64,000 nucleotides of DNA from a virus (IMGVR_UViG_3300021979_000001:258948-322947), one strand, 5' to 3'; counted from the stretch's first letter, positions 23,318 through 54,587 are shown. Notes: a model not told the origin generated them from the sequence alone. A program made the numbers and translations.

Positions 23318-24777
23318 TGCTTTATTTAGGAATCACATCATTAGGGCATGATGCATCTGTTGCCGTAGTTGAAGATAATGAAATTATCTTTGCCGGACAT
23401 GCTGAACGCTATTCTCGGATTAAAAATGATGGCAATATCAATCAAGCATTACTGGATGATGCGTTATCAGGTAGATCGCCAGATAAAATCATATGGTATG
23501 AACAGCCATTTATAAAAAAATCACGTCAATTTTTTTGTGGTCAATGGGATGGATTAGCGGTTCAACGGGTTAAAAAACATTTATCATTATTTGGGTTAGA
23601 CCAAATACCGGTTGAATACGCGGGGCACCATGAAAGTCATGCCGCTGGTGGATTTTATACCAGTTCATTTGATGATGCCACCATCGCGGTAATTGATGCT
23701 ATTGGCGAATGGACAACAATTAGTATTTGGCAAGCGGATTATACCGGAATGTTCCTCAAATGGTCGCAACGGTATCCGCATAGCATCGGATTGCTTTACA
23801 GTGCAATGACGCAACGCTGTGGTTTTAAACCAAACGAAGAAGAATATATAATGATGGGCATGGCCGCATTTGGGGATGATCGTTATACCGATTTGATAAA
23901 ACGCGATTTCATTAAAGATATGTCCGGGCCTGCATTTTCATTAAAAGAGAATGTCCATAGAGGCATAAAATGGTGGAAACCTGAAATAACAAATGTCGAA
24001 CACCTGGCCGCAAGTATGCAATCTATTACCGAAGAATATTTGTGCAATCTGACCAAATGGATTGCAACTAATCTTCCATCAAAAAACTTGATATTGTCGG
24101 GCGGAGTTGCCTTAAACTGTGTTGCCAATAGTCAGATTGCAAAGCAGGGAACGCATGATGAAATTTGGATCATGCCCAATCCAGGCGATGCGGGGTCGTC
24201 GTTAGGGGCGATTGCTGCATCAACATACCAAAAACTCAATTGGAAATCTCCATATTTGGGACATGATATTAACCGTGATCCTGATATTGACGGGGCAGTG
24301 CAGGCATTGGTTTCTGGGGAAGTCATTGGGTTTGCCAACGGTCGAGCCGAATATGGCCCGCGTGCATTAGGAAACAGATCATTATTAGCTGATCCACGGG
24401 GCGATAAATGCAAAGATCGAGTAAATCGGTTAAAAAAGAGAGAAATGTTTCGTCCGTTTGCCCCAGTCATAATTGAATCAATGGCAAATATTTATTTTGA
24501 CATGCCGGTTAAATCAAGCCCATATATGCAATTTGTTGCGAAAGTAAAGCGTCCTGATTTATATCCTGCTATTACACATAAGGATGGGACCGCTAGGGTG
24601 CAAACGATCCGTGCTGATCAAAATCCAATCTTTTATAAATTGTTAGAACAATTTTATAATGAAACCGGATGTCCTATGCTTCTTAATACCAGCTTGAATA
24701 TCAAAGGACAACCTTTAGTGAATACCTGGGAAGATGCATTATCATTCCAGAACCATTACTCGGTGCCGGTTTTCTGA
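23317..24777 (+). CDS. O-carbamoyltransferase (NodU/CmcH/TobZ family)
   Basis: HDASVA, ERYSRIKND, HHESHAA, DAIGE, SGGVALNCVAN, GDAGSSLGA, EYGPRALGNRSLLADP, KKREMFRPFAP, DGTARVQT, LNTSLN. Confidence 0.95.
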   Translation: MLYLGITSLGHDASVAVVEDNEIIFAGHAERYSRIKNDGNINQALLDDALSGRSPDKIIWYEQPFIKKSRQFFCGQWDGLAVQRVKKHLSLFGLDQIPVEYAGHHESHAAGGFYTSSFDDATIAVIDAIGEWTTISIWQADYTGMFLKWSQRYPHSIGLLYSAMTQRCGFKPNEEEYIMMGMAAFGDDRYTDLIKRDFIKDMSGPAFSLKENVHRGIKWWKPEITNVEHLAASMQSITEEYLCNLTKWIATNLPSKNLILSGGVALNCVANSQIAKQGTHDEIWIMPNPGDAGSSLGAIAASTYQKLNWKSPYLGHDINRDPDIDGAVQALVSGEVIGFANGRAEYGPRALGNRSLLADPRGDKCKDRVNRLKKREMFRPFAPVIIESMANIYFDMPVKSSPYMQFVAKVKRPDLYPAITHKDGTARVQTIRADQNPIFYKLLEQFYNETGCPMLLNTSLNIKGQPLVNTWEDALSFQNHYSVPVF

Positions 24778-25250
24778 TTAAGAATTTTTATAAATTCTTG
24801 CACCCATTGGTTAACACGCGGACGACATGATTTCATGCTTTCACGATGATCACGATTATTAAAAAAGATTTCATCATGTTCATGTGGTGGACCATGCCAC
24901 TCCGACCAGCCATATTTGTTTTCTTTATACCCAATAAAACCATCAGCGTCATATTCGTTTTGAAATCTAACAACATCATTTGCGTCAATATTCAAATCAA
25001 TGATCTGTCCATTTAAGATAACGTATTGATGTTTTTCATTTCCAGCCAGTTTCCCACCAAATACTTTTTGTGCGAACATAGAAGTGAACTTACACGAACC
25101 ACTTAGGTCATCTGGGGCAAAATCACCACGTTCTTTGCTGCGTTCTTTCCATTTTTCAAACACGAAGTCCTTAGCCAATCGCAAATTATCAGGGGTTGCC
25201 GATATAGGTAAGGTAACGTTATGTTGTTCGAATAAATCTTGATACCGCAT
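24756..25250 (-). CDS. putative papain/transglutaminase-like protein with capsid-targeting-like N-terminus
   Basis: Starts MRYQDLFE; spaced Cys-His-Asp (GSCKF...HQYV...IIDL). Confidence 0.5.
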   Translation of the reverse strand: MRYQDLFEQHNVTLPISATPDNLRLAKDFVFEKWKERSKERGDFAPDDLSGSCKFTSMFAQKVFGGKLAGNEKHQYVILNGQIIDLNIDANDVVRFQNEYDADGFIGYKENKYGWSEWHGPPHEHDEIFFNNRDHRESMKSCRPRVNQWVQEFIKILNQKTGTE

Positions 25251-25254
25251 ATTC

Positions 25255-26283
25255 TTAACTGGGCCTTACCATAATTTCTATTATTCCGAAATCATCATCG
25301 GTTTTATTTTCCAATGATTTTCCGATAACGGACCCTGGCACTAAGTCATATCCCGCTGCCGAAACACCAACGCCATATGCCGGGGCAGTCACAATCGGAT
25401 CACCTTTTTTAACCGGTCCAACAACCAGACACGGAACCCGACCTACGAGCGCAACATATGGGTGCGTAATGTCATTCCCCGCATTTTTATTCATTTCCAA
25501 TGCTGGATTTGTTGAAATAACCCCAGCAACACATGGGTCCATGAAGTTTTCAGTTACGGTAATTTCTTTATTGCCGCCAATGACAACAACTGTTCCTGGC
25601 AAATATTCACTATCCGATTCGTATCGTTCCGCAACGTCGGCATATAACGCTTGAATTGCGGTCCCAGAAAAAGTTGTTGCATACATAGTCGCAAACGTCG
25701 CACTAGATGATCCAATGTTGATTGTGTTTGCTGCATTGGGCACAATATCACCGCTGATCGTATCGCCGGATTTGCTTACTTTGCCACCAATCTGATTTGA
25801 AACAGTGGTAGCAAAATTTGGATCATCACCAAGAGCCTGTGCCAATTCGTTTAAGGTATCAAGGGTTTCCGGTGCAGAATCAACCATTGCACTGATTGAA
25901 TCATCGACATATGTTTTTGTCGCAAATGATGTATTAATCGTCGTTGATATTGCAACATTTGATGAACCATCAAATGAAACTGATCCGGTTACATCCCCGG
26001 TTAGTGAAATCGCACGACTGTTTGATAATGTTAGGGCACTATCAGCTTCAAGCCCGGAACCATCCCCGTCAACAGTTTTTAATTTTGTAAGAATTTCATT
26101 TGCAGTGAGGGTAGAACTGGTTAATGCACCAATTTGTGCCGCAGTTACACTGTGCGGGTTGGATAGATCACTGATATGATCATACGTATCATTAAAGTTA
26201 TTGTTAACTTTGCCAATTACTGACCGAAGGGTATCACCATCTGTTGTCCCCGGCGTCCCTGCATTAATAACTTGTTTAGTCAT
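25255..26283 (-). CDS. tail fibre protein with C-terminal YADxAE domain
   Basis: INAGTPGTTDGDTLR N-terminus, APETLDTLNELAQALGDDPNFATT fibre motif; C-terminal domain paralogous to 11283-12329. Confidence 0.8.
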   Translation of the reverse strand: MTKQVINAGTPGTTDGDTLRSVIGKVNNNFNDTYDHISDLSNPHSVTAAQIGALTSSTLTANEILTKLKTVDGDGSGLEADSALTLSNSRAISLTGDVTGSVSFDGSSNVAISTTINTSFATKTYVDDSISAMVDSAPETLDTLNELAQALGDDPNFATTVSNQIGGKVSKSGDTISGDIVPNAANTINIGSSSATFATMYATTFSGTAIQALYADVAERYESDSEYLPGTVVVIGGNKEITVTENFMDPCVAGVISTNPALEMNKNAGNDITHPYVALVGRVPCLVVGPVKKGDPIVTAPAYGVGVSAAGYDLVPGSVIGKSLENKTDDDFGIIEIMVRPS

Positions 26284-26316
26284 AATATTAATATCACCTG
26301 ATAAAACCTGTGATAT

Positions 26317-26324
26317 TATTTATC
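26317..26324 (-). promoter_or_regulatory. late-type promoter GATAAATA
   Basis: T4-late-like core 34 nt upstream of the tail-fibre start codon. Confidence 0.6.
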
Positions 26325-26332
26325 ATGGGTAG

Positions 26333-26729: not shown

Positions 26730-27203
26730 TCATGTTGTTGGTATTTTTCCATCCAATACATAAACCACCGGACGGAAATTGATTGCGGTTTCTTCAATAA
26801 TTCCCGAAATAATTTTCCATGATCCGTTTGCCAATCCGGCACCAATCAACGGAAACGCCACCCGATCATAACTTTCATATAATCGAGCATGTTCGTTAAT
26901 TTTATATAAACATTGCCGAATACCGGTGTAATTAGCATATACAACAGTTGGATCACGGCCATAATTTTTCTGTGTAACCGCATTAATAATCGTGGGTCCA
27001 CCCATCGGGTGAACCATAGTAATCGTTCCAACTTTTAATTCCCCAAGATCATACGCGGCTCGATAAACATCATATGCAATCGGCCACCTTTCACGAATCA
27101 ATTTCGCAATTCCACTTTTCATCACCCCGTGTGAATTACATCCGTGACAAATAACGTTTTCAGACGATGATAATAAATCGCCCTTGAAATATTGAATTTC
27201 CAT
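26730..27203 (-). CDS. macrodomain protein (Poa1/T4 Tk.4-like, ADP-ribose processing)
   Basis: KGDLL, ICHGCNSHGVMKSGIAK, INAVTQ, FPLIGAGLANGSW. Confidence 0.9.
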   Translation of the reverse strand: MEIQYFKGDLLSSSENVICHGCNSHGVMKSGIAKLIRERWPIAYDVYRAAYDLGELKVGTITMVHPMGGPTIINAVTQKNYGRDPTVVYANYTGIRQCLYKINEHARLYESYDRVAFPLIGAGLANGSWKIISGIIEETAINFRPVVYVLDGKIPTT

Positions 27204-28027: not shown

Positions 28028-29086
28028 ATGTCAAACTACGACTACCTTGTTTTTATTGGGCGGTTCCGCCCGTTTACGTTGGCGCACCTCGAAGTTATCA
28101 GGGCCGCGCTCAAAGAAGCCGACAATCTGATCATGATTGTGGGTTCATCATTCTCACCCCGGACCACTCGGAACCCGTTTACTTTTAACGAAGTCAATGA
28201 TATGATTTCGTTGAGTTTAAACCCCGATGAACGGCGTCGGGTTCATATCACCCCCTTGGCCGATTTTATGTATGCCGATCATCTTTGGGTCGAACAAACC
28301 CAGAAAATTGTTGGCATGTATGCTGGGGAAAACAGCAAAGTTGGTCTGATCGGCCATCAAAAAGACTATTCGTCTTATTATCTGAAAATCTTCCCGATGT
28401 GGAGCAACGTCAACGTTGCAAACTATCGTGGGATTAATGCGACTGCCGCCCGTAACGGCTATTTCTCCAATATTTCTAAAGAATGGTTGCATGCTGCCGA
28501 AGACATGTTACCAACCGCTGTGATCGAATATCTCTCGAAATGGCGCGATGGTGAAGCATTTGCCGACATGATGGAAGAATACGATTTCATTCGGCAATAT
28601 CACATCGAATGGGGAAAAGGCCCGCATATGACTGCGGATGCCATTGCCATTCAGGCAAATCACATCTTGATGGTTAAACGCGGCAATCGGCCAGGAAAAG
28701 GGCTTTGGGCCTTCCCTGGTGGGTTTTTGGACATTGATAAATCTGAAACCCTTGCCGAAGCCGCCATTCGGGAATTGAAAGAAGAAACAAACATCAATAT
28801 TCCCAACGGCGCATTACATGGCTCTATGAAGTTGAGCCGGGTGTTTGACTCGCCAGACCGCGACCCACGTGGCCGGATTATCACGTCTGCCCATTTGATT
28901 GACCTTGACCACGAAGTTACCCGGTCATTGAATAAAACCGGCACTGCTGGTTTGACAGAAATTAAACCGGGCAGCGATGCCGCCCATGCCGAATGGGTTC
29001 CATTGTCGAGCCTTTCATCGGAAACCATGTTTGCTGATCATTGGCACATCCTGCGCGCCATGATGAATGCATACAAAGCAAATTAA
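28028..29086 (+). CDS. nadM: bifunctional NMN adenylyltransferase / ADP-ribose pyrophosphatase (NadM-Nudix)
   Basis: FIGRFRPFTLAH (HxGH-like), RNPFT, INATAAR; Nudix box GGF.D..ETL.EAAIRELKEET; RDPRGR; GGAGGT SD before ATG 28028. Confidence 0.9.
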   Translation: MSNYDYLVFIGRFRPFTLAHLEVIRAALKEADNLIMIVGSSFSPRTTRNPFTFNEVNDMISLSLNPDERRRVHITPLADFMYADHLWVEQTQKIVGMYAGENSKVGLIGHQKDYSSYYLKIFPMWSNVNVANYRGINATAARNGYFSNISKEWLHAAEDMLPTAVIEYLSKWRDGEAFADMMEEYDFIRQYHIEWGKGPHMTADAIAIQANHILMVKRGNRPGKGLWAFPGGFLDIDKSETLAEAAIRELKEETNINIPNGALHGSMKLSRVFDSPDRDPRGRIITSAHLIDLDHEVTRSLNKTGTAGLTEIKPGSDAAHAEWVPLSSLSSETMFADHWHILRAMMNAYKAN

Positions 29087-29133: not shown

Positions 29134-30516
29134 ATGTTTAACAATATTCTTCTGAATACCGATAGCTACAAATCCAGTCACGCCTATCAATACCCGCCAA
29201 ACACCACACACGTTTACAGCTATATCGAAAGCCGTGGTGGCAAGTGGGATCATGCCGTTGTGTTCGGCCTGCAAATGTTTCTCAAAGAATATCTGACCAA
29301 ACCTATCACCCAGGCGATGATTGACGAGGCCGAAAGTTTCTGGCAGGCACATGGTGAACCCTTTTATCGTGAAGGCTGGCAGCATATCCTCGATGCGCAT
29401 AATGGTTATTTGCCGGTTGAAATCAAGGCCGTGAATGAAGGGACGGTGTTGCCGACACACAATGTTATGTTGACTGTTGTCAATACCGACCCTAAATGCT
29501 TTTGGTTGACATCGTTCCTTGAAACGGCAATCCTGCGGGCGGTGTGGTATCCGACCACGGTGGCGACCAATTCATGGCATTGTAAACAGGTTATCAAGAC
29601 CTGGCTTGACAAAACATCAGATGCCCCGGAACAAGTTGCATTCAAATTGCACGATTTTGGCGCGCGCGGTGTTTCAAGCCTGGAAAGTGCCGCCATTGGT
29701 GGTGTCGCCCATCTGGTCAATTTCATGGGCACTGATACTGTTTCCGGTGTTTTGGCCGCACGGACATATTACAACGAAGACATGGCCGGTTTTTCTATCC
29801 CTGCCGCAGAACATTCAACCATGACTGCTTGGGGCCGGGAAAATGAGGCGACCGCGTATCGCAACATGATCCAGCAATTCGGGGGTGATGGAAAACTGGT
29901 CGCAGTTGTCTCTGACAGCTATGATCTTTTTAATGCTGTTGATAAAATCTGGGGCGAGGAACTGCGTCAGGAAGTTATCGATAGCGGGGCTACCATTGTT
30001 GTTCGCCCTGACTCCGGTGACCCAAAAACCATCCCGGTTGAATGTGTCATTCGTCTTGGTGAAAAATTTGGCTATAGCCTGAATGACAAAGGATACAAAG
30101 TCCTTCCATCGTGCGTTCGGGTTATTCAGGGAGATGGCATCAACTTCGATACCATTGGTATTATCCTGAAAAATCTGGCCGACGCCGGATGGGCGGCGGA
30201 TAACATCGCGTTTGGCATGGGCGGCGGTCTGTTGCAGCAAATTGATCGCGATACCCTGAAATTCGCAATGAAGTGTTCCGCCGCCAAAATCGACGGAAAA
30301 TGGGTTGATGTTTACAAAGACCCAATCACTGATCCCGGTAAACGTAGCAAACGTGGTCGCCTCGGGTTGGTTCTGCTGGACGGTATGTATCAAACTGTTT
30401 CCGAAGATGCCACCGGCCAGGATGATAATCTGTTGATCCCGGTTTATCGCAATGGAAAGCTACTGCGCGACTTGACTTTCGCTGAAATCCGCGAACGGGC
30501 AACCCAAGCCCTGTAA
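29134..30516 (+). CDS. nadV: nicotinamide phosphoribosyltransferase (NAMPT)
   Basis: TDSYKSSH, YIESRGG, LHDFGARG, SIPAAEHS, VSDSYD, RPDSGDP, IQGDG, FGMGGGLLQ, KDPITDPGKRSKRG; GGAG SD before ATG 29134. Confidence 0.95.
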   Translation: MFNNILLNTDSYKSSHAYQYPPNTTHVYSYIESRGGKWDHAVVFGLQMFLKEYLTKPITQAMIDEAESFWQAHGEPFYREGWQHILDAHNGYLPVEIKAVNEGTVLPTHNVMLTVVNTDPKCFWLTSFLETAILRAVWYPTTVATNSWHCKQVIKTWLDKTSDAPEQVAFKLHDFGARGVSSLESAAIGGVAHLVNFMGTDTVSGVLAARTYYNEDMAGFSIPAAEHSTMTAWGRENEATAYRNMIQQFGGDGKLVAVVSDSYDLFNAVDKIWGEELRQEVIDSGATIVVRPDSGDPKTIPVECVIRLGEKFGYSLNDKGYKVLPSCVRVIQGDGINFDTIGIILKNLADAGWAADNIAFGMGGGLLQQIDRDTLKFAMKCSAAKIDGKWVDVYKDPITDPGKRSKRGRLGLVLLDGMYQTVSEDATGQDDNLLIPVYRNGKLLRDLTFAEIRERATQAL

Positions 30517-30581: not shown

Positions 30582-30620
30582 CATGACATAAATAAACATG
30601 CATTATGGATATATTATGTT

Positions 30621-31022
30621 ATGGACCAACCAAATAGAATTAGACTTCGCGGTATACCTTCACAAAAATACAGTAAATTTGTTGCGGCATTGTCTGCCGT
30701 GACATCCGATCACCCATTAAACCCAAACGCCAAATTAGTTGGGCCAGAAAATGACCCTACTGGATGGGTGGTAATTAACCGATCATCATATCCCCAATCA
30801 GCAAATATATCTGAAATAGTTTCAATTAGCCCTGGTGGCGGAAACAAATGTTTGAAGATGATTATTGAGTTAGCAAATCGATATAATATTCGATTAACAT
30901 TGACACCAAAACCAATTAATCATGGCACATTAACCAAACCGCAACTCATACAATGGTATAAACGGAATGGTTTTATTATGCTGGATAATGGCACAATGAT
31001 GTATACACCGACAACTGATTAG
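30621..31022 (+). CDS. GNAT acetyltransferase-like protein
   Basis: ISPGGGNKCLKMIIELA...LTL...LIQWYKRNGF; CATAAATA at 30587-30594; likely start MDQPN. Confidence 0.6.
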   Translation: MDQPNRIRLRGIPSQKYSKFVAALSAVTSDHPLNPNAKLVGPENDPTGWVVINRSSYPQSANISEIVSISPGGGNKCLKMIIELANRYNIRLTLTPKPINHGTLTKPQLIQWYKRNGFIMLDNGTMMYTPTTD

Positions 31023-34213: not shown

Positions 34214-34342
34214 TCCCTTTCATCGTATGTCTTGGTTAATGATCACAATATACCAGACAACAATAATTTTTCAACAAAAAAAACACATATTATGCATTTT
34301 TTTTATTTGTTTTATTATGCACATTAATCAAACTGATAAATA

Positions 34343-34927
34343 ATGAAGACAAACCGATTGGACCGTATGACGATGATTGACCATCCATATTTTCATGACC
34401 AGCATCCCGTAATATTGGATGAAGAAAGCTATAAAAGCATTATTGCGGATATTACGAAGAATAATGTTCCCGGCAGTATCGTCAATAATTTGCCGCACAA
34501 AGATTGGGCACCATTGATCAAATTTGTTCGTTACGTTACTTATAGCGGAAGCACATTCAAATTCTTTGTGCCAAATAAGTATAATGGTTGGCACACATAT
34601 ATTCAGTTTCGGAAAGAACAATGGCTTGAACAGATTAATGACAGAAGCCTAAACGCTAATGAAGTTGCGCGGCTTATGTTATGGTCCGGGGATATTTTGG
34701 TTCATTGTCCTTGCCCCAGTTTCAAATTCTGGGGTTTCCAATATATTATGACGCAGCTTGATTCCGCGATCATCCCGGAAAAACGGTATCCCCATATTCG
34801 CAACCCACAATTACATGGGGTATGTTGCAAACATCTGAACAGAACGTTAAAAGTTCTTCCCTTTTATCTTGGGGATATTGCGCGGGCTGTTTCTGAAACC
34901 AGAAAAGTAATTGATAACACGATTTAA
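34343..34927 (+). CDS. SWIM-type zinc-finger protein
   Basis: HCPCPSF...CCKHL; GATAAATA at 34335-34342 (true start may be a downstream Met). Confidence 0.7.
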   Translation: MKTNRLDRMTMIDHPYFHDQHPVILDEESYKSIIADITKNNVPGSIVNNLPHKDWAPLIKFVRYVTYSGSTFKFFVPNKYNGWHTYIQFRKEQWLEQINDRSLNANEVARLMLWSGDILVHCPCPSFKFWGFQYIMTQLDSAIIPEKRYPHIRNPQLHGVCCKHLNRTLKVLPFYLGDIARAVSETRKVIDNTI

Positions 34928-35510: not shown

Positions 35511-36686
35511 TTATCGTTCCGGTGCGGTATAAACAATGACCGAACCACGACTTGTATTATCCCCAGAAGCACCAATAGCCGCAATATTCCCGTCAAGTGT
35601 TAATGAAATCGCATCGTTTGTGCTAATTAATCCACTAAACGTATCCACCGCAGACCATTTAATGCCCTGTGCATTCACAAAGACATGCCCCGAATTGCTG
35701 GTTGCCCCGGCAATAACGACCGATCCACTACCATCCGTTCCAACCGCACCATTAAATGATTTCGCATCCGGTGGTGTTACGTGGGTAAGAAGTTTCCAAG
35801 TTAAGCCGGTTTTACGATAAATCCAAACAGTATTAGAAAACCCGTCACCAACGAACATTGTGTCGTTGGTAAGTTTGGAAATAGCAATATTAATTTGTGA
35901 TAAGGAACTAGCATTTCTAGTAAATGTTTTATAAACTTCATATGTTGAACCGTTTAACGAATAAATATAAATGGTGATTTCATCTGACCCGGTTTTCGAA
36001 GTTGTTACGACCGTTGATCCATCATCAGTCATCTTAAGACGATACCCCATTTGTGCCCCAACACCTTGATATGGGTTTTCAATAAATTGTCGCTGTCCCC
36101 AAGTTGAACCTATTTTTGTATATGAATATAATGCACCATACTGATATGATCCACCGTATGTATTTGATCCGACAACAACACGTAACCCATCCGCAGACAT
36201 GGCAACAGTTACCCCAAATCGTTGCTGGTTTTCTCTATTATCTGGTGACAACGTTGCATTTAATGACCACGTTGTTCCATTAGTTGTCCGATACACATAC
36301 GCCGCACCACATGGGGTATTGCTCACGGATGCACCACTACACCCAATAACAACATCATTACCATTATATGAAATTGAAACAGATATACCAAAATAGGCAT
36401 TACTAAACCCCTGTGGGTTATCAATGCGTTGTTTAAACTGCCAGGTAGACCCATTCCATCTATAAATGAACGCCTCGCCTCGGTTAGATTGATATTGTGG
36501 GGCACCAACGACCATTGTTGAACCATCCCCAGATATTGCTGTTGCCGCACCAAACCGGCTAATGGCCTGATCACTTGATAACACCTTCACCGATGACGAA
36601 TTTGACCAGTCATATTTCAACAATACCGGTGCGTTCAATCGCAAATTATTAAATGTCGGAAAAATACCTCGGACCGAAATTCCCAT
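35511..36686 (-). CDS. FG-GAP-repeat beta-propeller protein (possible virion adhesin)
   Basis: Repeats FG.(S/T)VA(I/M)S.DG...VVGA...G.(A/V)Y(I/V)Y; AATAAATA upstream (36721-36728). Confidence 0.8.
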   Translation of the reverse strand: MGISVRGIFPTFNNLRLNAPVLLKYDWSNSSSVKVLSSDQAISRFGAATAISGDGSTMVVGAPQYQSNRGEAFIYRWNGSTWQFKQRIDNPQGFSNAYFGISVSISYNGNDVVIGCSGASVSNTPCGAAYVYRTTNGTTWSLNATLSPDNRENQQRFGVTVAMSADGLRVVVGSNTYGGSYQYGALYSYTKIGSTWGQRQFIENPYQGVGAQMGYRLKMTDDGSTVVTTSKTGSDEITIYIYSLNGSTYEVYKTFTRNASSLSQINIAISKLTNDTMFVGDGFSNTVWIYRKTGLTWKLLTHVTPPDAKSFNGAVGTDGSGSVVIAGATSNSGHVFVNAQGIKWSAVDTFSGLISTNDAISLTLDGNIAAIGASGDNTSRGSVIVYTAPER

Positions 36687-36855
36687 CTAAAACCCCATAA
36701 ATTAAATTTAAACGTATTTGTATTTATTGTCGTTTAACCTATTCTTAAGTGCGCAAATAATACCAATGGCAAAATATGCCCGTATTACTGCATTATGTAA
36801 TTGAAAATATAACCAAAATAATGTATAGCTATACTTTTGAACATGGATAAAATCA

Positions 36856-37632: not shown

Positions 37633-37696
37633 GGGACCAAAAAACGCACACAGAACATGATAAATAACCGTATACTGTAGTGTGTGGGTTGAAAAA

Positions 37697-38497
37697 ATGC
37701 CAAATAATGATTTAAATGAATACCGGAAATTACCAACTGATCACATGCAAGGGAATGATCAGGATTATAAAATAATAAAACATCTTATTAATCTGCCCAA
37801 TAAAACGATAGAGAACCCTACGACTGCGAAAAATATAAAAAAACGTATTAGACAATCGTTATCAGCACATGGCCTTGATCGCACAGATCAAGAATATGTA
37901 GATCATTTATATAAGTTAATTGTCCAGGCGGCGGCACGGCGGCACGAGGCCCAGTTACGAAGTGATAAAACAAACAACATTGACCCTCTCTTAAAAAATC
38001 GCGAACAACGGATAAATCATAACACCAAGCAGAAATCAGCGCAGAACTACCACATGATTCGTCAGGCACGAAAAGATTATATTATTGAATTGATTAACCA
38101 AACCAAAATGTGTCCCATCTTTTCCCACTGGTCAACCGATGATCAATCAATAGTTTTGTTTGCGTTTGAAAATGGCGGTGCGACGGTTGGGAAGCAGCAA
38201 GGTGCATTAGCAACACTATCCGCCATTGAAACCGCAGTAAAGGAACGCGACTGGGATGTAATTCATGTCAGCAACAACCATGGTATTAAAGATAGTTGCT
38301 ACATCAAAGTTCCAGGGGGCGACATTGTTCGAGTTTCGAATCATGAATTACCTATCACCCACGAACGATTACACCACCATGATCAAAATAATGGCCCGAC
38401 ATGGGCAGGTGAAATCATTGTGGATGATTGGTTACACCGATCAATCGAAAGTTATATGTCAGAAATTCGTGACATTAGTCTACATGAGTTTTCGTAA
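37697..38497 (+). CDS. hypothetical late protein
   Basis: GATAAATA at 37659-37666; C-terminal SCYI...VRVSNH. Confidence 0.6.
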   Translation: MPNNDLNEYRKLPTDHMQGNDQDYKIIKHLINLPNKTIENPTTAKNIKKRIRQSLSAHGLDRTDQEYVDHLYKLIVQAAARRHEAQLRSDKTNNIDPLLKNREQRINHNTKQKSAQNYHMIRQARKDYIIELINQTKMCPIFSHWSTDDQSIVLFAFENGGATVGKQQGALATLSAIETAVKERDWDVIHVSNNHGIKDSCYIKVPGGDIVRVSNHELPITHERLHHHDQNNGPTWAGEIIVDDWLHRSIESYMSEIRDISLHEFS

Positions 38498-39116: not shown

Positions 39117-39147
39117 TGTTAATAAACCATTATTATGTATGTATAGA

Positions 39148-39170: not shown

Positions 39171-39198
39171 AAAAGAATAGTTTGAGTATATTTTTAGA

Positions 39199-39669
39199 AT
39201 GGAAATTTTATCACGTTATCGGAAAATTGCACTTGATTTCGATGGAACCTTATTTGACGGCCCAGCAAGTGAATATTTGCAAGAATATGTTGTTGATAAC
39301 CAGGACAAGTCATACGGAATTGTTACATTTCGGGATGACCGAGCATCTGTTATGCGTGATCTTTCTGCAATGGGTCTTTCACCGAACTTATTTGCAACAA
39401 TCATAACAATGCCAAGAAAGATGGCAATTGATTTTGAAGCAGAAACGACGATGCGACGACATGCGGGATTACCGTTATTAGCAACGGTATCATCAGATCA
39501 AATGTTTCCGACTGAACATAAGTATGTCATGTGGAAAGGTTTTGTTTGCATGAAAATTGGAGCATCGGTCTTAATTGACGACCTGCCTTGGGCGGTTAAA
39601 CCTGGATGCACCCGGTTTAATATCGATTATGTTGATGTGGCATCACTAAAAATACCAGCCTATACGTGA
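39199..39669 (+). CDS. HAD-superfamily phosphatase
   Basis: IALDFDGTL (motif I), IVTFR (II), K (III), LIDD (IV). Confidence 0.75.
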   Translation: MEILSRYRKIALDFDGTLFDGPASEYLQEYVVDNQDKSYGIVTFRDDRASVMRDLSAMGLSPNLFATIITMPRKMAIDFEAETTMRRHAGLPLLATVSSDQMFPTEHKYVMWKGFVCMKIGASVLIDDLPWAVKPGCTRFNIDYVDVASLKIPAYT

Positions 39670-39715: not shown

Positions 39716-40078
39716 CTATTCTTTAACGCGAACCAACATAACAACACCGTTGTCGTAATCAATTAAACAATTAATTAGACCATTAAATTTTTCGTTTAGT
39801 TTAATGTCAAAATCATTAAAACGTTCAAATGTTTCGCAATCAAACATTAGAATTTTCTGTTTATCATCATTGGAAATTGGCAAATGCGCCATTTCCCAAT
39901 CATCCATATCATACGCTTCCATTTCTTCATCTAGACCCTCGAAACCAATGGCATCCCAAGTTTCGCAATCTAAATCATCAAACGATAAATCAGGAATCAT
40001 ATTTAAGTATGAATCAACAATATTATTATTTGGCACATTCGTAATGATAGCGATAAGAATATTGATAAATTCACGCAT
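39716..40078 (-). CDS. acidic hypothetical protein
   Basis: 120 aa, Asp/Glu-rich, starts MREFINIL. Confidence 0.55.
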   Translation of the reverse strand: MREFINILIAIITNVPNNNIVDSYLNMIPDLSFDDLDCETWDAIGFEGLDEEMEAYDMDDWEMAHLPISNDDKQKILMFDCETFERFNDFDIKLNEKFNGLINCLIDYDNGVVMLVRVKE

Positions 40079-40112
40079 ACAACGGTCCTGATAACTTATC
40101 TATTAATAAATT

Positions 40113-40204
40113 TGGCGGGTGGGGTGGGATTTGAACCCACGGTTCGCCTCACGACGAACGACAGTTTTCAAGACTGTTGCAATAAGCCACTCTGCCACCC
40201 ACCC
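40113..40204 (-). tRNA. tRNA-Ser(UGA)
   Basis: Acceptor GGGTGGG/CCCACCC-G-CCA, anticodon arm ACAGT-CTTGAAA-ACTGT, long variable arm, TTCAAAT T-loop, encoded CCA. Confidence 0.95.
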
Positions 40205-40219
40205 GTTGTATGGTGTGTT

Positions 40220-40309
40220 TGGAGGAAAGAGAGGGATTTGAACCCTCGAACCGGTTTCCCGGTTAACGCGATAGCAACACGCCGCAATAAGCCACTCTGC
40301 CACCTTTCC
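40220..40309 (-). tRNA. tRNA-Ser(GCU), atypical
   Basis: Acceptor GGAAAGG/TCTTTCC-T-CCA, anticodon arm GCGTG-TTGCTAT-CGCGT, long variable arm; D-arm identical to the neighbouring tRNA. Confidence 0.85.
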
Positions 40310-40377
40310 TCGTCAACTAACATTTATTTATCATCCAATATAATATCGGTCAATAAAAAACATCATTCATCAATACA

Positions 40378-43002: not shown

Positions 43003-44178
43003 TTAAACGATGTAATGTGGGACGATTTTTGAATCACTCACGACGATTGGACTGTCATCTTGTTCGCGAATGACCATACCACACGCGGTTTCGCCAACAC
43101 ACCATGATCCAATCACAATATAATGGTTATCAATGTGTGGGACATTAACCCGAGCCTGGTATATATTGCGAGATCGATACCCGGCATCATGACTTTCAAT
43201 CACACCGTCCGGTGACACCATCTTAATATTTGCTCCTTCCCGTGCAAGTATCGGTTTTGCGACATAATTATCCCCCAGTTTGTCTGGGCTGAAATATGCC
43301 GGTAGCAAATTCGGATGATCCGGGAACAAATCCCATAACACTGCCAATATCGCTTTGTTGGATAATAATGCTTTCCAAATTGGTTCCAGGAAACCGATAT
43401 TCGCATTAACGAGAGCATCACCAAATTCTTCGGCAAACATCCATTCCCACGGATATAGCTTATCCAAAAACCGGATCACAATGTCGTCTTGATCAACAAA
43501 TTCACCATCTTCGGTAAGACCGATCATATTAATCGGGACATGCTTAACCTTAATGCCCCCTTGCATGGCAAGTTCCATGTAATATTCAATGTGTTGGCGT
43601 TCTTCTGGTGCATCATGAAATGACGTAAAATGCAAGATAGCCCCTTCTGGCATCAAATCACGAATCCGGGAATACCGATCAATCAATTCTTCGTGTAAAC
43701 TGTTAAATTGATCTGCATCGGGATGCACGTCGTTTTTCCACATCCACTGGATAACACTTGTTTCAATTGCGGTCGTTGGGGTATCACAATTGTATTCAAG
43801 CATCTTTGGTGCGGTTAATTCCGGGCGGGATGGATCGAATAATAAATCAAACCGTCCTTTGATATATGGATCATTTCGTTCCCAGGATTCAATGATCATC
43901 GGGCGAAACTTTTCTGGAATTTCGAAATTATCCATCAAATGAGGATTTTTGACAATGTGGGCAACCGCATCCAAACACCGTTGGTGCAATTCTTCTGTTG
44001 CCGCTTCAATTGTTTCAATTTCCGGTAATGAAAACGAATATGAAACCGTTTCATCCCAATAGCATCCGTCATTCCCAATTTCGGTTGATGGATGAACGCC
44101 GAAAGAATGATAGGTCAAACCTTGATCTTCAACAATTTGAACCCAATCATTTCGGGCCAAATGGGTGTCGCGCTTCAT
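43003..44178 (-). CDS. glutathionylspermidine synthase family ATP-grasp ligase (YgiC-like)
   Basis: YWDE..Y.F, GRFDL, KMLEYNCDTPT, QFNSLHE, KLYPWEW, EPIWKALLSNKAIL..LW..FPDHPNLLPA, KP..REGAN, IGSW. Confidence 0.92.
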   Translation of the reverse strand: MKRDTHLARNDWVQIVEDQGLTYHSFGVHPSTEIGNDGCYWDETVSYSFSLPEIETIEAATEELHQRCLDAVAHIVKNPHLMDNFEIPEKFRPMIIESWERNDPYIKGRFDLLFDPSRPELTAPKMLEYNCDTPTTAIETSVIQWMWKNDVHPDADQFNSLHEELIDRYSRIRDLMPEGAILHFTSFHDAPEERQHIEYYMELAMQGGIKVKHVPINMIGLTEDGEFVDQDDIVIRFLDKLYPWEWMFAEEFGDALVNANIGFLEPIWKALLSNKAILAVLWDLFPDHPNLLPAYFSPDKLGDNYVAKPILAREGANIKMVSPDGVIESHDAGYRSRNIYQARVNVPHIDNHYIVIGSWCVGETACGMVIREQDDSPIVVSDSKIVPHYIV

Positions 44179-45741: not shown

Positions 45742-45905
45742 AAATCAAACCTTTTCAAAATATTATCATAATGCATATTCATAAGATAACATTAAAAATA
45801 AAAACAATCAACTATTTTTTTCATTGTGGTGTTTATAATATCAAATATATCGGGTTCAGTAATGATAAATACTGTTATAATTTCTAAATTATATGGGTTT
45901 ATAAC

Positions 45906-46418
45906 ATGCGCGAACATATCAATATTGTTAAAGGTTTACATAACACCAAATCAACATTGGATGAAAAAAGAGCCAGGCGGTCAAAAAGAAAAACCCGCCG
46001 GAAACAGAAAACCGCGTCGTTGGTGTATCCTTATGTTGGGGCATGGTATGGTTATAATGACGATACCGGGTTTGATGGTGGAGATGTGTCAGAAGACATT
46101 GATGCCAGTGTTATGGGCGTGATTGATGAAGATCGTAACCCAATGCCGGTTTTTTATGGTTCGGATGATTCTGACATCAATGGTTGGTTTTGCAATGATC
46201 GGCAGTTTGCAGTCGAGTGTGGTAGTAATGTGTCATCCCATTATATTAAAATGGCAAAACCCTATGTAATAGAAAATCCTGGCTTGCAACATCCAATGTT
46301 AACCGGGGAAGACCCAGTGCCGATGTTACAGAACCAAGGATATGATGGGATTATTGTAGCGGGGAATGGGTTGATAAATTATTATGTATTTGACAGTTCA
46401 CAAATAATCAACATCTGA
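45906..46418 (+). CDS. basic-patch protein with degenerate ART-PolyVal-like domain
   Basis: MREHINIV...LDE, KRARRSKRKTRRKQK, NPMPVFYGS...WF...A...YIKMAKP...GYDGII...YYVFDSSQI; GATAAATA at 45864-45871. Confidence 0.55.
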   Translation: MREHINIVKGLHNTKSTLDEKRARRSKRKTRRKQKTASLVYPYVGAWYGYNDDTGFDGGDVSEDIDASVMGVIDEDRNPMPVFYGSDDSDINGWFCNDRQFAVECGSNVSSHYIKMAKPYVIENPGLQHPMLTGEDPVPMLQNQGYDGIIVAGNGLINYYVFDSSQIINI

Positions 46419-46419
46419 A

Positions 46420-47415
46420 CTTTGCAATTTTTGCAATACGGTATCGGTATATACACAAAGCCGAAGGCCGGTAACAACCAACCTTCGGCTATTTGGCCCG
46501 TGTCTTCAATACTGTTCGGGTTACAGCTTTATTTTTTTATTTAATAGTTCATTTTATTTTTGACATTTGATCCCCGACGAAACTATTATGATCGAACATA
46601 CGCATAAGGAGTAACAGGGGCGACTCCACCCCAAAAATTTAGACCAGAAAACGAGACTGGGATAAATGATAGTGCAATCACCAAGCCGTCGATCCCCTCG
46701 ATCAGTAAGGGTGATGGCAGCCGCTTGACAGAAGAATGCGAAAGCCGTTCTGTAAAAAGGCACCACGAAAAAGATGGCAATATGTCTTACAATTTGACAA
46801 ATGCCTGCATGCATCGTCCCCCAATGGCGTAATGCATGTGCTTGATACTTTTAAATCCAATATTTTTATCATAACCGTTTGGTCGCAATAAAATTTACCG
46901 GATTGGCGCTGGATGTGTAATTCCCAGTTACCTTTCTCTTGTAGGTGAAATTGACCGGAGTAGGGCGGCTACACGCTGGTTTCGGGAAACCGCCAGCTTC
47001 ATCTATAAACGATGATCACCGCTAATTGGGTTGGCAATGTGACTCAAGATGTCATATCTCCAATAGTCTCCCCTGTCTAACAAATATTTTTTCCCATGGT
47101 TCTATTACTATGGATAAATTTTTGTTAGACAGGGGGGCTAAAATATTGACGTGATCTAAGATATTGAATCAAACAATAGTTTTAAGATAATTGTTATCAA
47201 ACAATAACATTATTCTTCCAAAATGGCATAACGAGTGATGATAAAATCATTGCGATTTCAAGAGCAATGATTTTAGATAGAACGAGTTAAATGCCTAGTG
47301 GGGAATGAAATGAGTGTTCCCGTAAGGGAATACGAATGAAATTTCACGCTACATAATAATAAAAAACACACAGAAACAATCCATGTGTTTTAATTGGTCT
47401 TTTTTATGGATGTCT
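46420..47415 (+). ncRNA. ~1-kb structured non-coding region (candidate large ncRNA and/or replication origin)
   Basis: No credible gene; many stems (46459-46490, 46685-46718, 46728-46753, 47070-47135, 47242-47275, 47298-47347), with G-T wobbles favouring the + strand. Confidence 0.5.
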
Positions 47416-47838
47416 TTACTCAAAGACAAATTTAATTAGTTCTGCATAATCACCAGGTAATTCAAATCGACTTGATGATTCATCTGAATCAATCCATACT
47501 TCTCTTGCTGTTCGGACCAATGGCAAACATTTCTTCCAAGCCAATTTTATGTCTTCGAGTTTTCCTTCAATCATTAATTCGCGATCAGATCGCCAATTGG
47601 GATGCACTATACGAACCCATCCAGCACTAAACATTGTTGGATAAACTGTTAATGAGTTATTTCCCGTGATTTTTGGAACACCTAATTCCCCAGAATGTTC
47701 TTTAGCCCATGGTATATGCTGTTCTTCTTCTACCGGGTAAATTTTTTGCTCTTTTGCGTTAATCCAGGCACCATATGCTTTTGTGTTGAAGCTATACTCA
47801 AAGAGCAATGACGGATTAAACAATTCATAAATATTCAT
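47416..47838 (-). CDS. hypothetical late protein with capsid-targeting-like N-terminus
   Basis: MNIYELFNPSLLFE; GAWI...H...GWVRI; GATAAATA/AATAAATA at 47867-47881. Confidence 0.6.
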   Translation of the reverse strand: MNIYELFNPSLLFEYSFNTKAYGAWINAKEQKIYPVEEEQHIPWAKEHSGELGVPKITGNNSLTVYPTMFSAGWVRIVHPNWRSDRELMIEGKLEDIKLAWKKCLPLVRTAREVWIDSDESSSRFELPGDYAELIKFVFE

Positions 47839-47872
47839 CAGAAAATCACCAAATAATAATTTTGTTTATTTA

Positions 47873-48355
47873 TTATTTATCTGGTGATTTCCATTGTGTT
47901 TTCCGATGTTTCTTCCATGACCGTTGTGGTCTTCTGAAATTATCATCCCATGCGGTGGGTAAATTGGTATAATTTCGTTTGGCACGCTGATATGCCGGGT
48001 CCGATTTACGTTCAGATTGTGTTGATGGATACCGAAGCCATTTGCGTAAGGGTAGTTTTCTCCCTGTATTTGGAACAGGATATTTTCTAAACTTATTTTT
48101 AGATTCAATCATATCCCGTTTGTGGGCTTTAAATGCTTTGTCCGTAAAAACATGAACCGATACAAACGTATGCGTATGATCATAAATTTGCCATGTTATA
48201 TATTCGTCATCATCCATTGTTGCAAAATATTGAATTTCATTTGGATACTTTTTAAAAAAATTTGATATTATATCAAAGGTGAATGGCCCTTGCACCGTGG
48301 AACCGGTAACATGCTGAAAATAAAATACTTTTTTGTTTGGTGTAGTATTAATCAT
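47873..48355 (-). CDS. hypothetical protein with basic C-terminus
   Basis: 160 aa; RAKR...LPTAWDD....QRSWKKHRKTQWK. Confidence 0.6.
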   Translation of the reverse strand: MINTTPNKKVFYFQHVTGSTVQGPFTFDIISNFFKKYPNEIQYFATMDDDEYITWQIYDHTHTFVSVHVFTDKAFKAHKRDMIESKNKFRKYPVPNTGRKLPLRKWLRYPSTQSERKSDPAYQRAKRNYTNLPTAWDDNFRRPQRSWKKHRKTQWKSPDK

Positions 48356-50555: not shown

Positions 50556-51065
50556 TTAACATTCATTGATAAGGCCCCGAACCCGATCCAGTTCTTCGTT
50601 GGAATGTTGCGTTCCACCATCGTTGAACGCCAGATACCATTCGAGAACTTCTTTTCGGGTTTTAAGGGTTCCGATACGAATTTTCAGGGATAAGTTCAAT
50701 GACCACAACGTGTCAAATTCCGACGCTTTATGTCCGAAGGCAAGAACGTCATCCCGCATGAATTCGCGGATGGCCGTGATACGTTGCAGACCATCAACGC
50801 ATTGGAGTGTTCCTTTGAAAGAACCCATCCAATTCGGGTGATTGAAATATACATTTTTTCCACTCTCCCCGCCCCGCATGACATATTCAAGATATTTGGT
50901 TTTTTGTTCCTGTGACCATACGTGCCCACGTTGGAAATCAGGATTTAACTCAATCTTGATGTGGTCAGTGTTGTATTGCCCCAACCACCGTTCCAAATCT
51001 TTCCAGGATACATCGACTGCATAATTTGCGGTAGGGAATTTTGGGATGCTGTCAAATTTAATCAT
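50556..51065 (-). CDS. DUF262 / ParB-like (GmrS-type) domain protein
   Basis: LNPDFQRGHVW and VDGLQRITAI (QR..W and DGxQR motifs). Confidence 0.8.
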   Translation of the reverse strand: MIKFDSIPKFPTANYAVDVSWKDLERWLGQYNTDHIKIELNPDFQRGHVWSQEQKTKYLEYVMRGGESGKNVYFNHPNWMGSFKGTLQCVDGLQRITAIREFMRDDVLAFGHKASEFDTLWSLNLSLKIRIGTLKTRKEVLEWYLAFNDGGTQHSNEELDRVRGLINEC

Positions 51066-51165
51066 AACGCATAAATTCCTTGTTTATATTAAATTATGTA
51101 TTTCACATGTTCGTATATTACACCATAAAATAAATAATGTCATCACAAAATAAAGAAAAACTGAT

Positions 51166-52257
51166 ATGCGAATATTTGAAATTGAAACGTTGGATGCTCC
51201 AAATTCTCAAAATATCAATAAAAACAAAGCGTTTGATGCTTGGTTTGGTAATAGTAAAATACGAGATAAAAATGGAAATCCACTTCAAGTATATCATGGA
51301 ACGAACTCTGATGCTGATTTCATGGAATTTACCCCGGTGCGTAGTGGGAGTCCAGATGTCGGATATTATTTCACACGAGATTCGGAATATGCATCCGGGT
51401 ATGCGACTGCATTTAGCAATAATTTGAACAATGCTAGAATTGTCCCGGCATATCTTTCCATACAAAACCCATATTTTTGCATATTAAAACCCAATGGAAT
51501 TAATGGTTTCGATGATACTGCCAAAACAAAATTGATAAAGCAGGGATATGATGGCCTTGTTGTTGGTCTTACCGAATATGAATACGAAACCGGGTCCAGA
51601 AGTATACAAGATGATGCATCAGAAATTGTTGCATTTAAACCAAATCAAATTAAATCAATATTCAATTCAGGGTCATGGAAACAAGATACAAAAAATATTT
51701 CAGAAACATCAGCAATATCAGAAGCAAAAAACGTTGGTATACTTTATCACTTTACTGATTTGCATTCTGCCTGGGCCATATTAGAGGATAAGCAATTAAA
51801 AATAGGTGATACCGAAGGATCATTCCTGGCGTCTGGTGGTGGTTTTACAGTTACACATCCAAGAACACATATTAGTCTTACCCGTAATCCTCGTTTGCAA
51901 CGATTGGGTGAAAATTATCCATGGGGTCCAGTTCGTATTGTGCTGGATGGCGATAAATTATCACAAAAATATAAAATAAACCCGTATCAAGATCAAATAC
52001 ACGGTATCACCCGACATGAAAACCAAGCAGAAGAAATGATTGCGAACCACGTTGTTGATATTACTGGGTGCGTGGTGCGGGTTGATTTTAATATTTCTGA
52101 ATATATAACTAGATCGAACGATTTTGAAACATGGGTATCCATGCCAGACGATGACTCAAAAAAGAAATATATTCAACTTAGTAAAGATGACGCACAAATG
52201 TTCGTTAAATATATCAAATCACTTGGATATGATATTAATGTGGTGAAGAAATTTTAG
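51166..52257 (+). CDS. two-domain ADP-ribosyltransferase-like protein (ART-PolyVal-like plus a second H-S-E-type domain)
   Basis: FDAWFGNSK..D.NG.PL.VYHGT...GYYFT...YA..Y...YLSIQNP...GYDG...EIVAF.PNQIKS; then LYHFT...ISLTR...EE. Confidence 0.65.
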   Translation: MRIFEIETLDAPNSQNINKNKAFDAWFGNSKIRDKNGNPLQVYHGTNSDADFMEFTPVRSGSPDVGYYFTRDSEYASGYATAFSNNLNNARIVPAYLSIQNPYFCILKPNGINGFDDTAKTKLIKQGYDGLVVGLTEYEYETGSRSIQDDASEIVAFKPNQIKSIFNSGSWKQDTKNISETSAISEAKNVGILYHFTDLHSAWAILEDKQLKIGDTEGSFLASGGGFTVTHPRTHISLTRNPRLQRLGENYPWGPVRIVLDGDKLSQKYKINPYQDQIHGITRHENQAEEMIANHVVDITGCVVRVDFNISEYITRSNDFETWVSMPDDDSKKKYIQLSKDDAQMFVKYIKSLGYDINVVKKF

Positions 52258-53271: not shown

Positions 53272-53429
53272 GTTGATTTCCTTAATACTAATTGTTTAAC
53301 CAATAGTGCATTGTCCATAAGCCAGGACTATAACAATAAAAACAATGATGAAACAACGTGATTTCATGACCTGATCATCGTTTCTACCGTGATTATAAAC
53401 AGATAATATATATTAATCAATCGTTTTCA

Positions 53430-53645
53430 TTATTCACCTTCGCTGCTAAAATTCATTTTCTGCATGTCAACAATATCCTGAATAAAATAGACATTACCAT
53501 GTTTATCTACACATAAATTAGCGCCTACATATGGATGTGCCAGGGTCATGTTATTATTACGACATGCTTCTTCCATATGGTATTTGGAAAAATGGAAGCA
53601 GAACACGATCATAATAATGGCGAGTATGACAATTAAAAAACGCAT
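53430..53645 (-). CDS. small membrane-anchored protein
   Basis: N-terminal hydrophobic helix, two Cys. Confidence 0.5.
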   Translation of the reverse strand: MRFLIVILAIIMIVFCFHFSKYHMEEACRNNNMTLAHPYVGANLCVDKHGNVYFIQDIVDMQKMNFSSEGE

Positions 53646-53783
53646 TCACACGATTTTTGATCTTCTGTTTCATCTAACAGTCGCAACTTATTTTCCTTTC
53701 ATAATACTTTTGTTTCAACAAACAAGAATATAACTGTAGTTATATCAACATACGATATTTCACATAGTGTGATAAATAATATC

Positions 53784-54587
53784 ATGAAAATATCAGATTT
53801 TATATCAGAAAATATAATTGTTAATGAGTATATTGAAACAAACCATGTGTTCAATGCTGCGTTACAAACTGCATTCCAGGTGATGTCCATTCCGTTGTTT
53901 GATGGGCACAAAGAATCATGGCCGCAAGAAATGGCTTTACATTTTGAAACCAATTTTACTGACCTGGCATCGGATATAAGTTCCGATATTTATAAATCAG
54001 TTAGAGTTGAGTTTAAATTTGATAATTTTTTTCATGGTATGTTTAACATGAATTATAACGAGAACAATGATGAACGAGTGGGAACGATCACTATTTATCT
54101 CGATGAAAACTTATTTTTTGGTCATAAATATATCCATTGGGTATCTTCCTCGAAACTGATCAAACATATCGCACAAAAAATTGCTGAAATATTCACACAT
54201 GAATATTTTCATTCAGAACAGAATAGTCGTAATATTAAACGTAACGGGAGTTTTAACAAATATCGATCATCAAAATTGACAACAGACGTTATGTCAATCA
54301 ATGATGACAATTCCAGTTATAGAGCATATTTGGCAGATGTGCGTGAATTGCCAGCACAAGCATTGACTGCTGCTCACGCTATGGTCAAATTCTATGGCTC
54401 TGTGGAAAATGCACTGAATATGTTTAGTTCAAATCAATTTGCAAAACTTGTAGAAGACGTTAAGCAGAACATTGAATTGAATATGATGTGGGTGTATTTT
54501 TCCTGGATTAGAAAAACATCCGACGGAGATAAGTTCTTTAAACTGTATGTGAAAAACATCATACTGCATTTGCAACATATGATGTGA
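53784..54587 (+). CDS. zincin-like metallopeptidase with capsid-targeting-like N-terminus
   Basis: MKISDFISE; FTHEYFHSEQ (HExxH) with downstream Y....RE..A.A; GATAAATA at 53771-53778. Confidence 0.65.
   Translation: MKISDFISENIIVNEYIETNHVFNAALQTAFQVMSIPLFDGHKESWPQEMALHFETNFTDLASDISSDIYKSVRVEFKFDNFFHGMFNMNYNENNDERVGTITIYLDENLFFGHKYIHWVSSSKLIKHIAQKIAEIFTHEYFHSEQNSRNIKRNGSFNKYRSSKLTTDVMSINDDNSSYRAYLADVRELPAQALTAAHAMVKFYGSVENALNMFSSNQFAKLVEDVKQNIELNMMWVYFSWIRKTSDGDKFFKLYVKNIILHLQHMM

Follow-up and report, generated by a model that had tools for sequence, protein, structure and literature searches.

Late-promoter genes with T4-like capsid-targeting leaders in a giant phage: a candidate repertoire of head-packaged, injected enzymes

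Why do genes encoding unrelated domains, dispersed over the accessory region of a viral genome and often opposite in orientation to their neighbors, begin behind the same promoter-like motif and with similar N-terminal peptides? The question is raised by positions 24756-54587 of a 64,000-nucleotide (nt) stretch of DNA (hereafter the window), which comprises bases 258948-322947 of the 457,165-bp virus genome IMGVR_UViG_3300021979_000001 (38% G+C). An earlier note on this DNA had proposed a modular system of late promoter, address tag, and enzyme by which enzymes are loaded into the phage head. Our analysis supports this reading through the machinery genes of the phage, the T4-like leaders on unrelated domains, and the enrichment of such leaders among virion proteins of a cultured relative, Agrobacterium phage Atu_ph07. 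We therefore consider it likely that the tagged late accessory proteins are loaded into the head by a capsid-targeting sequence (CTS) of the T4 type, trimmed, and injected with the DNA. The accessory-region set that had been proposed is found there, but the set as a whole is genome-wide and several times larger than noted: we put the number of tagged proteins in the genome at no fewer than 18 and perhaps about 35, of which 7 or 8 fall within 24756-54587.

Judged from the T4-type functions that it encodes and from the relatives of its capsid protein, the phage is a giant member of the T4 superfamily. The closest cultured phages by capsid protein are Sinorhizobium phage Phosso (74% identity), Atu_ph07 (64.5%), and the PA5oct group (63%); a megablast search of the first 20 kb against a phage collection gave no match. 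In the present genome, the major capsid protein is of the gp23 type (PF07068, 248.6 bits) and the prohead protease of the gp21 type (PF03420, Peptidase_S77, 89.8 bits; genome 224677-225138, minus strand), the protease gene having an ATAAATA promoter to itself. The late sigma factor is gp55-type (PHROG 12791, E = 1e-69; the direct match to T4 gp55 is weak), and its gene adjoins a gp47-like gene in the same arrangement as in T4. In a BLASTP alignment, V-M-E/T of the gp23-type capsid protein falls on the T4 cleavage site L-T-E/A (the slash marks the cut), so that the specificity of the prohead protease is probably conserved.

The promoter was assessed over 628 genes from a crude in-house call, which combined a codon model, bonuses for ribosome sites, and greedy removal of overlaps. 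Genome-wide, ATAAATA lies within 60 nt upstream of genes 96 times in sense and 17 times in antisense orientation, and GATAAATA occurs upstream of genes 35 times in sense and once in antisense; the motif begins 31-45 nt ahead of the start codon in 58 of 97 cases. It precedes portal, protease, and tail-fiber-like genes, and of the late-operon genes with an Atu_ph07 homologue, 38 of 59 correspond to virion proteins there, compared to 15 of 76 among the other genes (p = 2e-7). Given this strand asymmetry, the spacing, the placement before structural genes, and the link to Atu_ph07 virion genes, ATAAATA is probably the late promoter of this phage group. The core is preceded by G in 34%, A in 30%, and T in 19% of cases, and six nt past the core A is found at 64%; T4 late transcripts start six nt after the core. 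The earlier note had equated the element with the T4 consensus TATAAATA, of which the core ATAAATA stands, whereas the preceding base is G or A and the exact T4 form is not enriched. Within the window, exact TATAAATA is below expectation (4 found compared to 7 expected), and we rule it out as the element, which we write as (G/A)ATAAATA. The nine NATAAATA sites listed in the note all exist, 5-35 nt upstream of a sense start codon or, at 40325, 15 nt before a tRNA-Ser pair; core coordinates given here are one base above those of the note on the plus strand. Further late-type promoters, absent from that list, lie in the region at 34336, 36721, and 39164.

Two side observations concern upstream elements. 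In four genes exactly 5 nt separate ATAAATA from the ATG (window 53772-53786; genome 169586-169900 on the minus strand, 197738-198067 on the plus strand, and 368418-369584 on the minus strand), a gap that puts the usual start on the A of the ATG, so that leaderless late mRNAs are likely. Two other upstream words, one like TTAACTTATTTT and one like TTGAATTA/TAATTGAA, are found in sense orientation at 16-17 genes each, with 0-1 antisense occurrences, and may be promoter elements of early or middle genes.

The second shared component is the N-terminal peptide, for which the N termini quoted in the note are all present in translated genes. It begins with Met, usually followed by Arg or Lys; then come a residue that is aromatic or hydrophobic, one that is acidic or Asn, two hydrophobic ones, and Glu, after which the next residue is mostly Ser, Ala, Asn, or Gly. 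Two flavors intergrade, the first resembling MRYQDLFE, MRYIDIISE, and MKITDLFE, and the second MRDFINIVSE and MRNFIDIINE, often with a few extra residues (3-5) in front. In T4 (NC_000866), the corresponding N termini read MKTYQEFIAE in the internal proteins IPII and IPIII, MELITELFDE in Alt, MAKINELLRE in gp24, and MLKEQLIAE in gp22. The second flavor reproduces the T4 spacing exactly: position 4 is aromatic, 7 and 8 are hydrophobic, and 10 is Glu. In the T4 CTS, targeting depends on residues 4 and 7 and processing on residues 8 and 10, with gp21 cleaving behind L/I-x-E (PMC9026906).

A strict pattern (R) for these leaders matched 25 of 628 N termini compared to 22 of 2,842 internal Met (5-fold, p = 5e-8), and a pattern built on T4 alone was likewise enriched 3- to 4-fold at the N termini of this genome. 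Matches to the strict pattern concentrate in late operons (18 of 152 genes compared to 7 of 476 elsewhere; odds ratio 9, p = 3e-7), as does a simpler criterion that asks for Lys or Arg in second position and hydrophobic-x-Glu ending at 7-14 (14 of 152 compared to 10 of 475). Whether the leader is commoner behind the motif than elsewhere had been named in the earlier note as a test of its reading, and it is: among genes with a promoter of their own, 12 of 97 match, compared to 13 of 531 others (odds ratio 5.6, p = 9e-5). Some operon-internal genes that have no such promoter carry leaders as well. The P3 position is encoded by ten different codons, which places leader conservation at the level of the peptide; the invariant GAA for the leader Glu was discarded as a signal, since GAA makes up 88% of all Glu codons and is uninformative. 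As a control, the same patterns gave 10 matches in T4, including IPII, IPIII, gp24, and Alt; because these matches are only partly known head proteins, the specificity of the patterns is roughly one half. Separately, T4 gp61.1, a hypothetical protein of 54 amino acids (aa) encoded in the early region (T4 record 18966-19130), begins MKTFKEFIKE, close to the CTS; we know of no report of its being packaged.

An out-of-sample test was provided by Atu_ph07, whose virion proteins, detected by ESI-MS/MS, have been listed (PMC6102473, Table S5). We assigned 131 of 140 transcribed rows to open reading frames by molecular weight and gene order, leaving nine small proteins ambiguous; the capsid protein was matched at 43.51 kDa. 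With the patterns fixed on the present genome, 11 of 21 Atu_ph07 proteins matching the strict pattern are in the virion compared to 120 of 789 others (p = 1e-4), and 5 of 7 matching the type-B pattern compared to 126 of 803 (p = 0.002). The promoter behaves in the same way, with 42 of 56 Atu_ph07 ATAAATA genes detected in virions compared to 89 of 754 (odds ratio 22, p = 1e-24). A post hoc pattern (R2) reached 19 of 20 in virions and was set aside as evidence, as it was written after the list had been seen and 13 of its proteins are one paralogue family. Counted by family, R2 gives 8 of 9 and a loose leader feature 11 of 28, where the baseline is 16% (p = 0.003). The tagged virion proteins include the head-module proteins gp199 and gp206, as well as gp381 (MKWQDLSE), the only, weakly matched, protein of Atu_ph07 that resembles the ADP-ribosyltransferase (ART) family ART-PolyVal; gp196, gp394, and gp377, also in the virion, are homologues of three tagged proteins of the present phage, one of them an amidoligase. 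The virion paper says nothing on N termini, cleavage, or propeptides (PMC6102473), and the PA5oct omics paper describes sigma-70-like promoters only and nothing on propeptides.

In Phosso, the ATAAATA motif counts 42 in sense and 10 in antisense. Only about 6-8 of its proteins are leader-like, including one from the head module, and ART-PolyVal was not found. Both Atu_ph07 and Phosso carry leaders on head-module proteins beside the protease and portal genes. The presence of leaders in these two phages, in which ARTs are rare or absent, indicates that the tag is old in the lineage and that its expansion, above all on ARTs, is particular to the present genome.

Within the region, the motif and the leader are distributed as follows (window coordinates):

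24756-25250, minus strand: leader MRYQDLFE followed by a YunG-like domain (22.3 bits, below the cutoff); starts 4 nt past the tail-fiber-like gene.
25255-26283, minus strand: tail-fiber-like late gene without leader (PHROGs tail and tail-fiber families, E down to 8e-25).
26317-26323, minus strand: promoter core ATAAATA, 33 nt before the tail-fiber-like gene; probably also serves 24756-25250.
30588-31022, plus strand: core 30588-30594 and a late gene with likely start 30621, 133 aa, no leader.
34336-34927, plus strand: core 34336-34342 and late gene 34367-34927, no clear leader, no family.
35511-36727, minus strand: late gene for an FG-GAP-repeat protein, 35511-36686, no leader; core 36721-36727.
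37660-38497, plus strand: core 37660-37666 and a gene with likely start ATG 37697, leader-like MPNNDLNE, 30-nt spacing, no family.
38508-39154, minus strand: gene 38508-39116 with leader MSNRDVANFLRE, ART-PolyVal-like (25.3 bits, cutoff 31.2); core 39148-39154.
39164-39669, plus strand: core 39164-39170 and late gene 39199-39669, no leader.
39716-40331, minus strand: core 40325-40331, two tRNA-Ser genes, then 39716-40078, a 120-aa acidic protein beginning MREFINIL.
45865-46418, plus strand: core 45865-45871 and gene 45906-46418, leader MREHINIV...LDE, ART-like (22.9 bits).
47416-47880, minus strand: double core 47867-47880 and gene 47416-47838, leader MNIYELFNPSLLFE, no family.
51130-52257, plus strand: core 51130-51136 and gene 51166-52257, leader MRIFEIE, ART-PolyVal (80.5 bits) and a second domain.
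53772-54587, plus strand: core 53772-53778, 5 nt before the ATG; gene 53784-54587, leader MKISDFISE, HEYFH motif.

The leaderless tail-fiber-like gene behind ATAAATA serves as a control within the window, indicating that the motif marks structural genes. For the gene at 37660-38497, we place the start at 37697 rather than at 37682, as probably correct, because the resulting 30-nt spacing to the core is typical. The leader MNIYELFNPSLLFE resembles that of gp199, the Atu_ph07 head-module virion protein. The tandem tRNA-Ser genes at 40113-40309 (anticodons GCT and TGA) lie 15 nt behind a late-type core and may be made late.

Genome-wide, ten genes match the ART-PolyVal domain (Pfam PF18760), with six scoring higher than the 31.2-bit gathering threshold, and all ten, coding for 110-600 aa, have leader-like starts. 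Other tagged proteins carry Amidoligase_2, NUDIX, DUF6513, or YunG-like domains, and many match no family; they range from 53 to 604 aa with one or two domains each, and after removal of the first 20 residues BLAST connects only some of them. The cargo assignments made in the earlier note fared unevenly. Where it had counted four ART-like proteins, 51166-52257 lies over the cutoff, but 38508-39116 and 45906-46418 lie below it, the latter apparently degenerate, with Tyr in the first motif where His or Arg is expected. The HExxH motif on which a peptidase had been proposed is present in 53784-54587 as HEYFH, but the fold leads to zinc peptidases are weak (Atlas TM scores of 0.37-0.39 to peptidase clusters) and no Pfam or PHROG match was found; a related-locus search, a word-index search, and phmmer run against all 1.8 billion representatives returned no relative other than its own paralogue. 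The Cys-His-Asp protease-like call for 24756-25250 retains weak transglutaminase-like fold leads, beside Phage_YunG-like clusters, with the YunG match itself being below the cutoff. The presumed late GNAT is leaderless as described (30621-31022), but it has no GNAT or other family match at E up to 0.01. MREFINIL, listed as a leader, is indeed present, but it has no nearby cleavage motif and its gene has no promoter of its own.

An ART of the window matches PHROG 21376 at profile positions 521-722 of 1664, a family of giant proteins elsewhere, and metagenomic ART homologues often have leaders of the same type, others having none. In 51166-52257, the second domain, from about residue 186, is directly preceded by I-S-E/A. 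The same domain occurs in metagenomes alone behind MIKLLDLVE/A or a longer leader ending in L-H-E/A, and also after NUDIX, behind V-K-E/G. Hydrophobic-x-Glu at these junctions would fit cleavage at module borders, and the residues could also belong to the domain. This domain (window 51721-52254, plus strand) bears a conserved LYHFT...DGDKLS...AEE signature. Its only family lead is a weak match to Tox-ART-HYD1 (Pfam, E = 0.03), and its AlphaFold model, from 4 sequences, has a pLDDT of just 62; possibly it represents another ART-like domain, one not described before.

Among the ART genes stand a macro-domain protein (26730-27203), a fusion of nicotinamide mononucleotide adenylyltransferase and NUDIX (28028-29086), and a nicotinamide phosphoribosyltransferase (29134-30516), which together form a toolkit for nicotinamide adenine dinucleotide (NAD) salvage and ADP-ribose beside NAD-consuming enzymes. 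Between two tagged genes, a gene-free 1-kb gap (46419-47416) has a homologue at genome 415227-416088, on the other strand (nhmmer E = 1e-39). Elsewhere in the window, a GmrSD_N (DUF262) protein (50556-51065, minus strand) and a glutathionylspermidine-synthase-like enzyme (43003-44178, minus strand) are encoded, and three radical-SAM proteins in a row with a carbamoyltransferase (17369-24777, plus strand) lie downstream of a 3,389-aa protein.

In the mechanism that we propose, a gp55-type sigma factor would transcribe the accessory genes late from (G/A)ATAAATA. The propeptide of 8-20 residues would dock the protein on the scaffolding core during prohead assembly, as it does for T4 IPI-III and Alt, and the gp21-type protease would cut after hydrophobic-x-Glu, so that the mature enzyme would be retained in the head and enter the next host alongside the DNA. 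There, ART-PolyVal-type and other small enzymes would plausibly modify host proteins at the onset of infection, and the cargo may blunt NAD- or nucleotide-based defense at its very start. Delivery of such an enzyme kit with the DNA is probable because similarly tagged proteins are found in the virions of a cultured relative.

Several points weigh against this reading. For this phage, docking, cleavage, head location, and ejection are inferred from T4, and the targets are putative. All genome counts rest on the crude gene call, in which genes and start codons are approximate, and the leader patterns were devised after inspection of this genome's data. Within the window alone, ATAAATA is at chance level (32 found compared to 34 expected from shuffles). 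Of the 25 strict matches, 7 fall outside late operons, and of the strict matches in T4 and Atu_ph07 no more than about half are known head or virion proteins. Leader length varies from 7 to 20 residues, and some leaders lack a nearby Glu or have their sole site very near the N terminus; MREFINIL (39716-40078), which has no hydrophobic-x-Glu close by, is a weak candidate. In Atu_ph07, 13 tagged virion proteins are a single paralogue family, none of the tagged proteins of the window itself has a detectable homologue there, and the list records virion association only; virions purified with polyethylene glycol can carry contaminants.

That the Atu_ph07 data register presence in virions only leaves room for an alternative in which the tagged proteins are indeed virion associated, but their N terminus docks elsewhere—on the outside of the capsid, on hairs or whiskers, or on the tail—and they are neither cleaved nor injected. 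The virions of Atu_ph07, a "hairy" phage, contain many proteins that are unexplained (PMC6102473; PMC7824862), and the largest tagged family of this phage, gp53-63, consists of 13 paralogues of ∼30 kDa in a structural cluster. However, docking at such a site would not account for leaders that end in the protease's own hydrophobic-x-Glu followed by a small residue, that share the spacing of the T4 CTS, and that also sit on head-module proteins near protease and portal genes in both Atu_ph07 and Phosso; moreover, soluble ART, NUDIX, and amidoligase enzymes are improbable as external fibers. The fiber-anchoring domains known to us are far longer than 8-10 residues. We regard this alternative as unlikely.

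We consider it just as doubtful, if not slightly more so, that the shared gene start is an expression cassette for strong late translation, spread by recombination, whose peptide has no function. Such a cassette would explain why promoter and leader co-occur on dispersed genes, often running against their neighbors, why the leader codons are AT-rich, and why certain promoters abut the start codon. Yet most late genes behind the same promoter, including those for the portal, the protease, and the tail-fiber-like protein, are leaderless, and operon-internal genes without a promoter of their own carry leaders. The use of ten codons and several residues at the hydrophobic positions shows conservation of residue type instead of nucleotides, and the same leader type occurs in phages of 37%, 38%, and 49% G+C. 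Finally, chance and paralogy, with ART paralogues keeping an ancestral N terminus and AT-rich DNA yielding ATAAATA, would suit the window motif count and the several tagged proteins that are ART paralogues, but this very improbable reading is largely refuted by the strand asymmetry (96 compared to 17, and 35 compared to 1 for GATAAATA) with its fixed spacing, the enrichment over internal Met, the leaders on nonhomologous proteins, and the prediction of Atu_ph07 virion membership by patterns fixed here.

Loading of tagged enzymes into the head, the reading that we prefer, is closest to the internal proteins of T4 and their CTS. In both systems, diverse, fast-evolving cargo follows a short propeptide whose positions 4 and 7 are aromatic or hydrophobic and whose positions 8-10 form hydrophobic-x-Glu, and a gp21-type protease and a gp23-type capsid protein are encoded in the same genome. 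They differ in that T4 has a handful of tagged genes, whereas the present genome has about 20-35, dispersed and each with its own late promoter; in that the cargo here is mostly enzymes, compared to the small basic proteins of T4; and in that there are two leader flavors, MRYxDLFE-like and MRxFINIVxE-like. The present set is, in addition, known from sequence alone. The head-packaged, injected ART of T4, Alt, likewise lies behind a late TATAAATA-type promoter and has a gp21-trimmed N terminus, MELITELFDE, and two proteins of the present phage begin MELAELF and MELCELF; the ARTs here, however, belong to Pfam ART-PolyVal and not to the Alt family, in about ten copies of 110-600 aa.

The domain vocabulary—ART-PolyVal, NUDIX, and GNAT-like—is that of the polyvalent proteins, for which delivery together with the DNA has also been proposed (Iyer et al. 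2017, as cited in PMC7824862). Unlike these single giant polypeptides, the proteins described here come from separate small genes, each with its tag and promoter, and the few two-domain proteins have hydrophobic-x-Glu at the junction. Possibly, and we advance this tentatively, giant phages of the Atu_ph07 group have replaced the polyvalent protein by dozens of individually tagged late genes with two tag flavors, whose cargo the prohead protease would both release and dissect. The ejection proteins of phiKZ-like phages such as SPN3US are similar in being head-internal, cut after Glu by a gp21-related protease, and equipped with propeptides inferred to target them into the prohead (PMC5694885, PMC10052503); those propeptides are mostly longer than 100 residues with an A/S-x-E motif, whereas the leaders here have T4 length and a bulky hydrophobic P3.

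The proposed mechanism is that of T4, while the scale and the cargo are new. Loading of various proteins by T4-like phages through the CTS had been suggested in a review (PMC9026906), and a jumbo-phage survey had recorded numerous ARTs for this group (PMC7824862). Our literature search found no paper describing an expanded CTS repertoire, and a term search of PMC7824862 found no link between stand-alone ARTs and a head-targeting tag.

Should the tag act as it does in T4, sequence alone would suffice to list what this phage injects, and those proteins would encounter the host ahead of any phage gene expression. About ten ARTs, which dominate this cargo and lie next to NAD-salvage and macro-domain genes, would then point to ADP-ribosylation as a first strike on host proteins or on NAD-based defense. 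The same tag rule would explain a good part of the 102 virion proteins reported without function in Atu_ph07 and would supply natural short tags for loading foreign proteins into the heads of jumbo phages. If, furthermore, the polyvalent protein has been replaced by individually tagged genes, the injected effector set of any such phage would be readable from its sequence, and the two flavors of the tag could sort the cargo according to copy number or location within the head.

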